A stretch of 64,000 nt of DNA from Candidatus Limivicinus sp. (lineage in GTDB: Bacteria; Bacillota; Clostridia; Oscillospirales; Oscillospiraceae), in the NCBI GenBank assembly GCA_045592365.1, contig JAZNUQ010000073.1, positions 18,912-82,911 of the forward strand, read 5' to 3'. Positions within the stretch are counted from its first letter, which is position 1. Each line of letters begins with the position of its first letter. The notes beneath the pieces were generated by a model that saw only the letters and a program-made list of their open reading frames with translations, was not told where the DNA came from and made no database searches. Positions 19,169 to 36,235 of this stretch are shown here, in pieces. The position numbers were made by a program, and so were the translations under genes.

Positions 19169-19245
19169 GGGAGCATAGCTCAGCTGGTTAGAGCACCTGC
19201 CTTACAAGCAGGGGGTCACTGGTTCGAGTCCAGTTGTTCCCACCA
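19169..19245 (+). tRNA. tRNA-Val (anticodon TAC)
   Basis: Hand-folded cloverleaf. Acceptor GGGAGCA/TGTTCCC, anticodon loop CTTACAA, T-loop TTCGAGT, encoded CCA. Confidence 0.9.
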
Positions 19246-19258
19246 TCTTATTTAATAA

Positions 19259-19334
<76 letters not shown>

Positions 19335-19357
19335 CCCGCCTGAAATGGCGGGTACAT

Positions 19358-19433
19358 GCGGGCATAGCTCATCCGGTAGAGCGCCACCTTGCCAAGGTGG
19401 AGGTAGCGAGTTCGAGCCTCGTTGCCCGCTCCA
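19358..19433 (+). tRNA. tRNA-Gly (anticodon GCC)
   Basis: Acceptor GCGGGCA/TGCCCGC, anticodon stem-loop CCACC-TTGCCAA-GGTGG, T-loop TTCGAGC, encoded CCA. Confidence 0.9.
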
Positions 19434-19474
19434 AAAACAGATTTGCGGGCGACAGCGGCCCGCAAATCTTATAT

Positions 19475-19549
19475 GGCGCCATAGCCAAGTGGTAAGGCAG
19501 CGGACTGCAAATCCGCGATTCCCCGGTTCAAGTCCGGGTGGCGCCTCCA
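19475..19549 (+). tRNA. tRNA-Cys (anticodon GCA)
   Basis: Acceptor GGCGCCA/TGGCGCC, anticodon loop CTGCAAA, T-loop TTCAAGT, encoded CCA. Confidence 0.9.
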
Positions 19550-33238: not shown

Positions 33239-34204
33239 ATGAAGTACAGAATTGTAATTATAGCTCTTGTTATCTTCGCCCTTGGCGCAGTGCTCTTTTT
33301 CGGCGCATGGGCAAGCATGGACTTTGGCTCTGTTGAGCTTTCCCCGGTGAAATGCGAAAAGAAAAGCCTTGTTATCTCCGACAGCTTTCACAGTGTATCA
33401 ATCACCGTGGCTGCCGACGATGTACACATCGAGCCCTCTCCCGACAGCATCTGCCGCGTGGAATACACTGACTGCAGCAGAGCGGTATACAAAATCTCCG
33501 TGGAAAATGGCTGCCTCACAATAAAGCAGGAGCATACCAAAGGCAGGAATGGGCGCGGCGGCATGGGGTTTTCCGTCGGCGCTGAGGACAATATGCTTAT
33601 TATATTCCTGCCCCGGGGAAGCTATAAGGAGCTTTGCGCAAATCTTGCCTCGGCTGACTTTTACGCAGGAGCCGGCTTTGACTTTGAGACTGCGGAGATA
33701 AACTCAGCCAGCGGTGATATGGACATTGGCGCCGTGGTCACCGGCAGCCTCAGCGCACACAGCGCCAGCGGTGATATGCGCGTAGGCGGCCTTGAGCTTG
33801 ACAGTATTGAGCTGGATACCGCCAGCGGTGATATTGAGCTGGGCGATATAAGCTGCGGCATAATTGAGATACAGAGCACCAGCGGTGACATTGAGCTGAG
33901 GGATGTAAGCTGCGGCAGCCTTGAGGTACAGAGCGCCAGCGGCGCACAGCAGCTTTACAATGTGCTTTGCAGGGCTGAGCTGAGGCTTGAAAGCACCAGC
34001 GGTGATATGCGCCTTGAGCGCTGCGACGCAGCCTCCCTTGAGCTTGAAAGCACCAGCGGCTATATATCCGGCATTCTCCTCAGCGGCAAGGATTTTGATG
34101 TTAGCAGCACCGGCGGCAGCATACGCCTGCCTGAAAGCTCCGGCAGCTGCAAATGCCGCATAAAAACCGTCAGCGGAGACATTGATTTTTCCATAGCGCC
34201 TTGA
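33239..34204 (+). CDS. DUF4097 family beta-strand repeat protein
   Basis: N-terminal TM helix, then repeated S(A/T)SGD(I/M) strands (about 8 copies). Third member of the PadR-DUF1700-DUF4097 triad. Confidence 0.8.
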   Translation: MKYRIVIIALVIFALGAVLFFGAWASMDFGSVELSPVKCEKKSLVISDSFHSVSITVAADDVHIEPSPDSICRVEYTDCSRAVYKISVENGCLTIKQEHTKGRNGRGGMGFSVGAEDNMLIIFLPRGSYKELCANLASADFYAGAGFDFETAEINSASGDMDIGAVVTGSLSAHSASGDMRVGGLELDSIELDTASGDIELGDISCGIIEIQSTSGDIELRDVSCGSLEVQSASGAQQLYNVLCRAELRLESTSGDMRLERCDAASLELESTSGYISGILLSGKDFDVSSTGGSIRLPESSGSCKCRIKTVSGDIDFSIAP

Positions 34205-34268
34205 ATTACACCGTGGTATGTCATATAATTTATGTGACTTACCACGGTTATCTTTATTGAAGGGAGAA

Positions 34269-34910
34269 ATGAATATGTTATTCGGAAACTGGTCCTTTGC
34301 CCCGGAAGCACAGCGGGCAATAGCCGCCGTGCGCGACCCGTCAAACTTCCATTGGTCAATCCTTACCCTCTTTGCCATCGTTATGATAATCTACTCCAAC
34401 GAGATTAAGGCGAAGAACTACAAGGCAGTTGCCTCGGCACTTATGCTGTACAGCATCCACTGGCTCTACGAGATTGCAAACGCGGTCATCTGCCACCTAA
34501 GCGGCTACGCTCTGTGGACGGTCTCCCCGGAGAGTACCAGCTTCATCCTGCTTATCGGCGTCAGCGCGGAGCTTTCACTGATGTTCTCCATCGCGGGCTT
34601 CACCTGCAAGCTGCTGCCCGAGGATAAGAACATGAAGATACTGGGCATCAACAACCGCTGGTTTTTTGGCATAGGCTTTGCCCTGTTCTGCGCCGTGTTT
34701 GAGATTTTCCTTGCATGGACACCGGCCTTTATCTGGGTCTACCCCTGGTGGGGCGCCCTGCCTGTGTTTGTCACCACCTATATTCCCTTCTTCGTGGGGG
34801 CATATCTTGTGTATGACCTGCCGGCAAAGAAGCAATTTGTTGCGGTGGGCAGCCTGATGGCGCTGAACATCGTGCTGCTTATGGTGCTGGTTCCTCTGGG
34901 CATTATATAA
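34269..34910 (+). CDS. hypothetical polytopic membrane protein
   Basis: About 213 aa with 6 hydrophobic segments. ATG 34269 is preceded by GGGAG. No recognisable motifs. Confidence 0.6.
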   Translation: MNMLFGNWSFAPEAQRAIAAVRDPSNFHWSILTLFAIVMIIYSNEIKAKNYKAVASALMLYSIHWLYEIANAVICHLSGYALWTVSPESTSFILLIGVSAELSLMFSIAGFTCKLLPEDKNMKILGINNRWFFGIGFALFCAVFEIFLAWTPAFIWVYPWWGALPVFVTTYIPFFVGAYLVYDLPAKKQFVAVGSLMALNIVLLMVLVPLGII

Positions 34911-34989
34911 AATATTGCAGAAATTCCGGCGTCGGCTCACATAAATATTTGCTATTTTGACTATTTTATGTGCTAAAGTGCAAAAACTG

Positions 34990-35018
34990 TTGACAAGAAA
35001 CTGTCACAGTCCTATAAT
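34990..35018 (+). promoter_or_regulatory. consensus sigma-A promoter of the metNIQ leader
   Basis: TTGACA (34990-34995), exactly 17 nt spacer, TATAAT (35013-35018). Confidence 0.85.
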
Positions 35019-35047
35019 TCAGGCATACCTAAAAGGAGCGAACAGCA

Positions 35048-35161
35048 ATGCGTTACACTTTTGTTGTTAACAGCATGATGGCTATGATGATGCGCATGTT
35101 CAGCATGTGCATGATGATGCGCGCCCGAATTTGCAGTTCGCTTTGTTTCACAGTCGTCTGA
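35048..35161 (+). CDS. 37-codon Met-rich leader ORF (MRYTFVVNSMMAMMMRMFSMCMMMRARICSSLCFTVV), candidate attenuator peptide
   Basis: AGGAG (35034-35038) lies 9 nt before the ATG. Codons 10-24 contain 10 AUG. The ORF sits between the promoter and the terminator, upstream of metN. It is below the 60-aa cut-off of the ORF track. Confidence 0.7.
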   Translation: MRYTFVVNSMMAMMMRMFSMCMMMRARICSSLCFTVV

Positions 35162-35182
35162 GTTCAGTATTGAATTTACATG

Positions 35183-35217
35183 ACCGGGAAGCATGCGAGC
35201 TTCCCGGTTTTTTTATT
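35183..35217 (+). terminator. intrinsic terminator (attenuator) in the metNIQ leader
   Basis: ACCGGGAAGC-atgcga-GCTTCCCGGT perfect 10-bp stem followed by TTTTTTATTT. It lies 21 nt after the leader stop and about 26 nt before the metN ATG. Confidence 0.85.
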
Positions 35218-35242
35218 TGTCCGGTAGGAGTTGAAAGAAAGA

Positions 35243-36232
35243 ATGATAGAGCTCAAACACCTCAGCAAAACCTTCCACACGACGGAAAAGGACATAGTCG
35301 CGCTGGAAGACATCAATCTCACCATTAACGACGGGGAAATATTCGGCATCATCGGTCTGTCCGGCGCCGGAAAAAGCACCCTTGTGCGCTGCATAAATCT
35401 GCTGGAGACCCCCAGCTCCGGTGAGGTCATAATTGACGGCAGCAGCATAACGGAGCTTCCCCGCAAGGAGCTTTTGAGGCTGCGCCAGAATATAGGCATG
35501 ATATTCCAGAGCTTCAATCTTCTGGAGCAGCGCAGTGTGCTGAGAAATGTCTGCTATCCGCTTGAGATTGCAGGCGTTGCCAAGGCTGAGGCCAGGGCAA
35601 GGGCTCAGGAGCTTTTAAAGCTGGTGGGTCTTGAAGACAGAGCCAAATCCTATCCCTCTCAGCTCTCCGGCGGTCAGAAGCAGCGTGTTGCCATTGCAAG
35701 AGCCCTTGCAACAAAGCCCAAGTATCTGCTTTGCGACGAGGCCACCTCCGCCCTTGACCCCAACACCACCCGCTCCATTCTTGAGCTGCTTAAGGAAATA
35801 AACGAAACGCTGGGCGTTACTATTATAGTGATAACCCACGAGATGAAGGTCATCGACCAGATATGCGACCGCGTGGCGGTCATTGACCAAAGCCATATCG
35901 CTGAGGAAGGCCGGGTCAGTCAGGTGTTCACCAATCCCCGGTCCCGGATAGCCCGTGACCTTATAATCCCCAGAGACAGGGCGGTGCTGGACACCAAGGG
36001 CGGCAGAAAGCTGCGCCTTACCTTCAATAATGAGTATTCAAACGCCCCTGTCATCTCCAACATGGTTCTGGAGTGTCAGGCGCCTGTAAATATACTTTTT
36101 GCAGACACCAAGCAGTTTGAAGATCACATCTACGGTCACATGATAATCGAGCTTCCCAGTGACCCCAGACAGGCGGACAAAATTCTTGTCTGGCTTAAGG
36201 GCAGCAATATTGAATGGAGAGAGGAGGTATAA
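35243..36232 (+). CDS. metN: methionine ABC transporter ATP-binding protein MetN
   Basis: MIELKHLSKTF start, Walker A GLSGAGKST, signature LSGGQKQR, and a C-terminal NIL domain. ORF track start (TTG 35231) replaced by ATG 35243. Confidence 0.9.
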   Translation: MIELKHLSKTFHTTEKDIVALEDINLTINDGEIFGIIGLSGAGKSTLVRCINLLETPSSGEVIIDGSSITELPRKELLRLRQNIGMIFQSFNLLEQRSVLRNVCYPLEIAGVAKAEARARAQELLKLVGLEDRAKSYPSQLSGGQKQRVAIARALATKPKYLLCDEATSALDPNTTRSILELLKEINETLGVTIIVITHEMKVIDQICDRVAVIDQSHIAEEGRVSQVFTNPRSRIARDLIIPRDRAVLDTKGGRKLRLTFNNEYSNAPVISNMVLECQAPVNILFADTKQFEDHIYGHMIIELPSDPRQADKILVWLKGSNIEWREEV

Positions 36233-36235
36233 ATA

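Follow-up and report, generated by a model that had tools for sequence, protein, structure and literature searches.

In enterobacteria, the trpL, hisL, leuL, thrL, ilvL and pheL leaders share a common layout in which a promoter is followed by a short open reading frame (ORF) rich in cognate codons, by antiterminator and terminator hairpins, and by the regulated operon. Stalling of the ribosome on the regulatory codons keeps the antiterminator strand available for pairing, whereas this strand is masked once the ribosome has reached the stop codon. Ribosome-mediated attenuation likewise occurs in Gram-positive bacteria, where it is able to replace T-boxes; Lactococcus, for example, has a leu/phe leader. 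A His leader precedes hisS/hisZ in bacilli (PMC2965389), a leucine-rich leader precedes ilv-leu in S. aureus (PMC5794164), and Cys-codon leaders without a recognisable terminator are located before cys/cbs in Actinobacteria (PMC1262725). The subject of the present study is a leader of the same layout and geometry, located upstream of a metNIQ-type methionine transporter operon in a 64,000-nucleotide stretch of DNA (the window) from Candidatus Limivicinus sp. (Clostridia; Oscillospiraceae). Its organisation strongly suggests a ribosome-mediated transcription attenuator, which would adjust metNIQ expression to the amount of charged elongator Met-tRNA available.

Textbook control of methionine genes in Firmicutes involves S-box riboswitches, T-boxes or protein regulators. 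Compared with the Met T-box and S-box (SAM-I) leaders of Firmicutes metNIQ-type transporters, the leader described here is associated with the same genes and would likewise act by controlling an intrinsic terminator. The Met T-box also reads the charging of tRNA-Met, but the putative sensor of the metNIQ leader is the translating ribosome and not an RNA that binds tRNA or S-adenosylmethionine (SAM). Differences from the enterobacterial leaders lie in the amino acid apparently sensed, methionine, in the regulated operon, which encodes an importer instead of a biosynthetic pathway, and in the clostridial host. Moreover, competition for the antiterminator strand comes from the Shine-Dalgarno region of the leader itself and not from the segment of regulatory codons, which here occupy an enclosed loop with a hairpin of their own. 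The leaders known from other Firmicutes and from Actinobacteria are specific for other amino acids and have no sequence relation to the metNIQ leader. In contrast to the actinobacterial Cys leaders, every member of the metNIQ leader family has a strong terminator.

A genome-wide survey of attenuators mentions methionine only under T-boxes and SAM riboswitches (PMC2965389), and a comparative study of Actinobacteria reports Cys leaders but none for methionine (PMC1262725). Rfam 15 contains no methionine leader peptide, and no description of a methionine leader-peptide attenuator was found in the full-text literature, a search that left most subscription journals outside its scope, so that an earlier description is possible. 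Judged by its sequence, the leader represents a new family within the known mechanism of leader-peptide attenuation, and every sequence-level feature of that class is present in it. It is probably the first methionine-sensing leader-peptide attenuator to be recognised: a conserved element, represented by about 200 unannotated small-ORF clusters, of gut and rumen Oscillospiraceae, in which stalling in an AUG run would control import and the Shine-Dalgarno region would act as an anti-antiterminator.

The elements of the leader and operon are as follows (coordinates in the window):

34990-34995, + strand: -35 hexamer TTGACA; 12/12 consensus together with the -10 hexamer, spacer 17 nt
35013-35018, + strand: -10 hexamer TATAAT; inferred transcript start near 35025
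35033-35043, + strand: segment 1, the Shine-Dalgarno region of the leader, AAGGAGCGAAC; pairing partner, segment 2
35048-35161, + strand: leader ORF MRYTFVVNSMMAMMMRMFSMCMMMRARICSSLCFTVV; ATG at 35048, 37 codons, TGA at 35159-35161
35075-35119, + strand: regulatory Met-codon run; 10 AUG among codons 10-24
35090-35112, + strand: P1 hairpin in the Met run; AUGCGCAUG / loop UUCAG / CAUGUGCAU
35136-35157, + strand: segment 2, 3' end of the leader ORF; predicted antiterminator 5' strand, with segment 1 as alternative partner
35159-35178, + strand: small apical hairpin containing the stop codon; caps the predicted antiterminator helix, with a hairpin of variable sequence at the equivalent position in related leaders
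35182-35198, + strand: segment 3, terminator 5' arm and loop; partner either segment 2 or segment 4
35199-35209, + strand: segment 4, terminator partner of segment 3
35182-35218, + strand: intrinsic terminator; hairpin 35182-35209 (11 pairs, 7 of them G-C, loop of 6), T run from 35208
35243-36232, + strand: metN, ABC ATPase with NIL domain; best match TIGR02314 ABC_MetN (359.6 bits), ABC_tran + NIL
36236-36916, + strand: metI, permease; best match MetI subfamily, BPD_transp_1
36925-37758, + strand: metQ, substrate-binding lipoprotein; MetQ/NlpA family, Pfam Lipoprotein_9 (226 bits)

The leader promoter is the only 12/12 match within 34000-38500 and ends 29 nt before the leader ATG, which is preceded by the Shine-Dalgarno sequence AAGGAG at 35033-35038 (AGGAG, 35034-35038). 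Within the ORF, ATGATGATGCGC is present twice, at 35084-35095 and at 35111-35122. The occurrence of 10 ATG in 15 codons has an estimated chance probability of about 1e-15 (each codon taken as 1/64), and the + strand of the window contains no second Met-dense ORF; chance is therefore not an explanation. The leader RNA folds better than 200 of 200 shuffled sequences (z = -3.7). Since the scores of MetN (under the strict equivalog cut-off) and of MetI are both below the strict NCBI cut-offs, the operon is termed a metNIQ-type transporter. A preliminary description of this DNA had already noted the promoter, AGGAG, the 37-codon ORF, the Met run, the repeats, the terminator and the metN ATG, and all of them lie where it had placed them.

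Conservation of the leader and its coding signature

The homologue set consists of 80 metN loci (68-84% MetN identity) obtained by a MetN search of bacterial assemblies, with one genome per species. Nearly all are from metagenome-assembled genomes of Oscillospiraceae or 'Candidatus Limivicinus' of gut and rumen origin. A Met-rich mini-ORF is located upstream of metN in 71 of the 80, the carriers including Flintibacter faecis BX5 (L071) and the isolate Lawsonibacter sp. LCP25S3_F5 (L070). The consensus of the leader peptide is MRxxxxNSMMMGMMCMxxMCMMMRAQK..., with a median of nine internal Met codons per leader (range 6-12). Most of the family statistics given below refer to the 67 leaders, out of these 71, that are included in alignment A1. 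All 67 have a promoter matching the consensus at 10 or more of 12 positions (12/12 in 42), and in 62 it ends 29-37 nt 5' of the leader ATG. The presence of a near-consensus promoter immediately before the ORF indicates that the mini-ORF is the first feature of the transcript. An intrinsic terminator is located 3' of the stop codon in 71/71 leaders (70 detected by one search script, and that of locus L045 by another), at a distance of 12-48 nt in the aligned set. The preliminary description had suggested that mini-ORF, AUG run and terminator be sought together in related genomes, and some 70 orthologous leaders prove to have all three.

Strong Shine-Dalgarno sequences are found in 67/67 aligned leaders (AAGGAG in 51, and AAGGA, AGGAG, GGAG or AAGG in the others), with a spacing to the start of 8-11 nt in 60, and the start codon is ATG in 64 and GTG in three. 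Of the 588 ATG triplets from the start codon up to the last Met codon, 585 are in frame, and eight of nine distinct gap events in this part of the alignment are multiples of 3. This is the case for only 1/7 events in the rest of the ORF, 2/9 in the 5' untranslated region and 7/25 between stop codon and terminator. The indel pattern implies that the frame is kept exactly as far as the Met run and that conservation beyond it is at the RNA level. In six leaders (L035, L039, L056, L062, L073 and L079) the stop codon is located before the conserved 'SPCFIS' sequence, which is kept there as untranslated RNA. These coding constraints are indirect evidence that the mini-ORF is translated.

Proteins related to the leader peptide are abundant in public data, where about 200 clusters of 29-62 amino acids match a profile built from 33 leader peptides; no Pfam domain is found in these clusters, and their sole source name is 'hypothetical protein'. 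The genomic contexts sampled from four clusters always show the leader together with ABC_tran + NIL, BPD_transp_1 and Lipoprotein_9, with upstream neighbours that differ. Metagenome contigs were also scanned with a narrow DNA pattern; at least 20 genuine leaders are among the 120 matches listed, the remainder being ATG microsatellites, and all 20 precede a metN-type gene. No leader was found before other methionine genes on the + strand of the window, in the sampled peptide contexts or among the pattern-scan matches listed, the narrow pattern making this a weak negative. The exact leader peptide of the window has no record in the assembly index.

Some of the loci without a leader can be accounted for by their upstream region. 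The upstream sequence is too short in two, although the end of the ORF is still visible in one of these. In L049, L064, L068, L075 and L076 an upstream gene, a putative metQ, ends just before metN; because this gene reaches almost to metN, these loci are not comparable with the others, and regulation of their operons would lie upstream of the putative metQ. They are mostly labelled Lachnospiraceae, and in four of the five the short gap before metN contains a GC-rich hairpin, CTCCGGGGAG...CTCCCCGGAG. In L043, another ABC gene is located upstream. No known RNA was detected in L043 or in the five loci with a putative metQ upstream.

Variation is also observed among loci with a leader. A diverged metNIQ-like paralogue (42% MetN and 36% MetI identity) stands behind a typical Met leader, MRNNRHSFMMMAMHMCRMCMMMRAQNSASPD, in L129 (5800-10060, minus strand) and in L182; in L129 the paralogue is followed by a 400-aa gene for what was judged from sequence to be an M20-type amidohydrolase. 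The leader in these two loci may control a second importer, possibly for a methionine derivative. The spacer between terminator and metN, usually about 20-60 nt, is 127-315 nt long in L007, L008, L009, L025 and L039. In L007-L009 it includes GC-rich palindromic insertions, such as GCTCCCCTTGGCAGGGGAGC, which resemble small repeat elements and have no Rfam match.

Alternative RNA structures and ribosome geometry

The preliminary description had recognised no S-box, SMK or T-box core in the leader, and this is borne out by the absence of any relevant Rfam match even at E <= 10. At gathering score, the only Rfam 15 matches in the whole window are tRNAs, and at E <= 10 the region 34900-35300 gives only chance matches to small nucleolar RNA or small RNA models, all with E > 2. 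SAM aptamers (SAM-I/S-box, SMK and others in Rfam 15) have no match in this region at either threshold. The same is true of the T-box model RF00230, which has no match in the window at gathering score, nor in 34900-35300 at E <= 10. Nine related loci likewise contain no Rfam family, SAM riboswitches included. The RF00230 model does detect a T-box in two loci of sister Oscillospiraceae genomes with 76% identical MetN, L028 (213-450; 99.8 bits) and L029 (985-1223; 95.7 bits), where it occupies the same place as the Met leader ORF. Read against the T-box consensus, the specifier of these T-boxes appears to be AUG. The occurrence of Met leader and T-box in the same position suggests that ribosome-based and tRNA-binding sensors have been swapped before one operon.

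The terminator is well conserved as a structure: pairing is kept in 94.8% of cells of the family, and two-sided changes occur at 10 of its 11 pairs. For the P1 hairpin within the Met run, 97.7% of cells are paired (67 sequences), with solely one-sided, pair-preserving changes. The variable codon in P1 specifies Cys, Arg, Tyr or His, yet it is always YRC, which implies a constraint at the RNA level. P1 could represent a pause hairpin or a mere by-product of CAUG palindromes.

The computed pairings give moderate support to an antiterminator, predicted to be mutually exclusive with the terminator, in which segment 2 pairs with segment 3. In the window it would consist of pairs 35138-35141/35195-35198, 35144-35149/35188-35193 and 35153-35155/35182-35184, with an energy of -15.4 to -16.6 kcal/mol. 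Its core helices are 89.9% and 82.2% paired in the family, compared with 19-63% when the partner columns are slid. The partial transcripts that were folded begin 13 nt beyond the last run codon and end with the terminator loop, which imitates a ribosome stalled in the Met run at a time when the terminator 3' arm is still unmade. Of these, 66/67 are predicted to form the antiterminator, to which segment 3 contributes a median of 16 paired nt. A pairing of 12 nt or more is reached by 60/67 native transcripts versus 37% of those with segment 2 shuffled, and the mean energies of the folds are -18.5 and -14.6 kcal/mol, respectively. Partner-swap tests, carried out on 39 representative leaders (<80% identity to each other), favour the native pairs both in the antiterminator core (p = 5e-5) and in its distal part (p = 2.5e-4), the negative controls giving p = 0.41 and 0.58.

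A different antiterminator, 35093-35101 with 35188-35197, had been proposed by eye in the preliminary description. Although its energy in the window is -11.6 kcal/mol, it was rejected, because native partners score no better than permuted ones in the family (-7.8 versus -8.4, p = 0.97) and because a ribosome stalled in the Met run would cover it. The evidence supports the predicted pairing of 35136-35157 with 35182-35198 as the antiterminator instead. The most partner-specific pairing is that of segment 1 with segment 2 (native -15.0 versus permuted -11.1 kcal/mol, p = 5e-5). It is present in the minimum free energy structure of the window leader, between 35035-35043 and 35136-35144, and is stronger than in shuffled sequence (mean z = -2.5).

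The spacing of these segments relative to the ORF is also conserved. Counted from the first base of the last run codon, the distance to the segment 2 core is 19-22 nt in 65/67 leaders, with exactly 21 nt in 52. A ribosome protects approximately 12-15 nt downstream of the A site; with a footprint of this size, taken from general knowledge, the start of the segment 2 core falls beyond a ribosome stalled in the Met run. The stop codon is located at -6 to +30 nt from the start of the segment 2 core in 67/67 leaders (+21 in 42). A terminating ribosome at this position would cover segment 2, except in the three leaders with +30, where it would lie immediately next to it. Like the elements themselves, their conservation, the coding signature and the alternative pairings, this geometry is a result of computation. 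The preliminary description had left the search for mutually exclusive terminator and antiterminator structures to folding; with a fitting ribosome geometry, they are predicted in the 66 of 67 partial transcripts mentioned above.

Proposed mechanism and rival explanations

Stalling at AUG codons, the relative timing of ribosome and polymerase, and a response to methionine can be inferred from this arrangement. The near-consensus promoter would produce a transcript that opens with the well-initiated 37-codon ORF. When methionine is scarce, the leading ribosome would stall in the AUG run and leave segment 2, about 21 nt past the last run codon, uncovered. Segment 2 (35136-35157) would then pair with segment 3 (35182-35198) as the latter emerges, and the resulting long antiterminator hairpin would allow read-through into metNIQ. 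When methionine is plentiful, the ribosome would reach the stop codon (35159) and cover segment 2, in which case segment 3 would pair with segment 4 (35199-35209) and transcription would end at the T run. On a leader devoid of ribosomes, segment 2 would pair with segment 1 (35035-35043), leaving the terminator free and shutting off further initiation. A ribosome-mediated methionine attenuator before metNIQ, as put forward in the preliminary description, is the interpretation to which the Rfam negatives, the conservation, the coding signature and the mutually exclusive antiterminator point.

Several considerations weigh against such an attenuator. Methionine starvation should also limit charging of the initiator tRNA, resulting in less translation of the leader and favouring termination. 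This need for initiator tRNA implies that the response may work solely under mild limitation; the length of the AUG run may allow mild limitation to be sensed first. The relatives compared are almost all metagenome-assembled genomes, and their sequences share phylogeny, which makes the permutation p-values optimistic. Shuffling of segment 2 still leaves 8 or more paired nt in 67% of controls. Sequence conservation dominates in the antiterminator core, where true covariation is accordingly modest (20 two-sided cells versus 8.6 shuffled; 5 pairs versus 4.8). Finally, the pairing of segment 1 with segment 2 accounts for just 58% of cells in fixed alignment columns, because its register differs between clades.

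The leader peptide could alternatively act as a ligand-sensing arrest peptide comparable to TnaC, SpeFL or plant CGS1. The nascent Met-rich chain, together with methionine or SAM in the exit tunnel, would then halt the ribosome close to the end of the ORF, and the signal would not be tRNA charging. The motif M-C-M-M-M-R-A-Q-K is indeed well conserved, and a ribosome arrested close to the stop codon would mask segment 2 and so promote termination, the right sign for repression by methionine. However, the frame is lost after the Met run, where only 1/7 indel events are multiples of 3, the six early-stop leaders end before segment 2, and the YRC constraint on the variable run codon operates on the RNA and not on the peptide. 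Moreover, 6-12 cognate codons in the run are the signature of hungry-codon sensing. These observations make an arrest peptide improbable, although the conserved R-A-Q-K tract might have a role at the peptide level. Sensing of cysteine by the three Cys codons of the window ORF was also considered and rejected, these codons being better explained by RNA pairing constraints. The first 'Cys' codon of the run is always YRC, which keeps a P1 pair, the second is UGC or CGC, and the C-terminal Cys is located in the RNA-constrained segment 2. Cys codons may nevertheless make a minor contribution to sensing.

Two further explanations dispense with attenuation by translation of the Met codons. The AUG tract could be an untranslated RNA element, either a riboswitch that has so far escaped recognition or a target of proteins, TRAP-like or other, that bind AUG repeats, in which case the ORF would be incidental. 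The conservation of P1 (97.7% of cells paired), the good folding of the leader (z = -3.7) and the self-complementarity of CAUG, through which AUG repeats carry structure, are consistent with this idea. It is nevertheless very improbable in view of the strong Shine-Dalgarno sequence, optimal spacing and ATG or GTG start in 67/67 leaders, the 585/588 ATG in one frame, the frame-preserving indels exactly up to the last Met codon, the stop codon always beside segment 2 and the lack of an Rfam match. The TRAP-like version is further disfavoured by the fact that the known TRAP sites of B. subtilis need spacers of 2-3 nt between triplets. The ORF could also specify a functional small Met/Cys-rich hydrophobic protein, which might for example associate with the transporter in the membrane or buffer metals or oxidants, the terminator then serving as a partial insulator. 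The roughly 200 homologous small-protein clusters and the constant linkage of this hydrophobic peptide to metNIQ would agree with such a function, but the C-terminus is unconserved as a peptide and is cut off before segment 2 in six leaders, and the constraint is confined to the AUG codons and RNA pairing. The presence in all leaders of a strong terminator between ORF and metN, together with the alternative antiterminator, and the lack of any Pfam or NCBIfam match render a functional small protein extremely doubtful.

An antisense reading was rejected as well. The 60-codon ORF of the minus strand (35194-35012) owes its His run, HHHAHAEHAHHHSHH, solely to the Met run, ATG being read as CAT on the complementary strand. 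On inspection of the sequence, this ORF lacks a Shine-Dalgarno sequence, the hairpin is not followed by a T run in the antisense direction, and the genes predicted at this end of the leader are encoded by the + strand. This His-run ORF could mislead gene callers or searches for His leaders.

Implications and genomic surroundings

If the proposed attenuator operates as described, hungry-codon sensing would be workable even for the one amino acid on which initiation of the sensor's own translation depends. This raises the question of how a sensor initiated by Met-tRNA stays responsive under methionine limitation. A conserved Met-codon attenuator would fill a gap in the known modes of methionine control and would provide a case in which a ribosome sensor and a T-box interchange before the same operon within one family. 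It would also offer a function for about 200 unannotated small-ORF clusters of gut and rumen metagenomes, and would mark methionine import as tightly regulated in the abundant but poorly studied Oscillospiraceae.

Upstream of the leader promoter in the window, a 230-aa hydrophobic ORF (34218-34910, + strand) without Pfam or NCBIfam match is located between a DUF4097-like gene and the promoter. In the closest relatives, L210-L213, the DUF4097-like gene directly precedes the leader; since they lack the 230-aa ORF, the latter looks like an insertion specific to the window genome. The tRNA genes detected in the window (Rfam RF00005) include a cluster of four at 19169-19546 and a single gene at 38102-38174, just past metQ.

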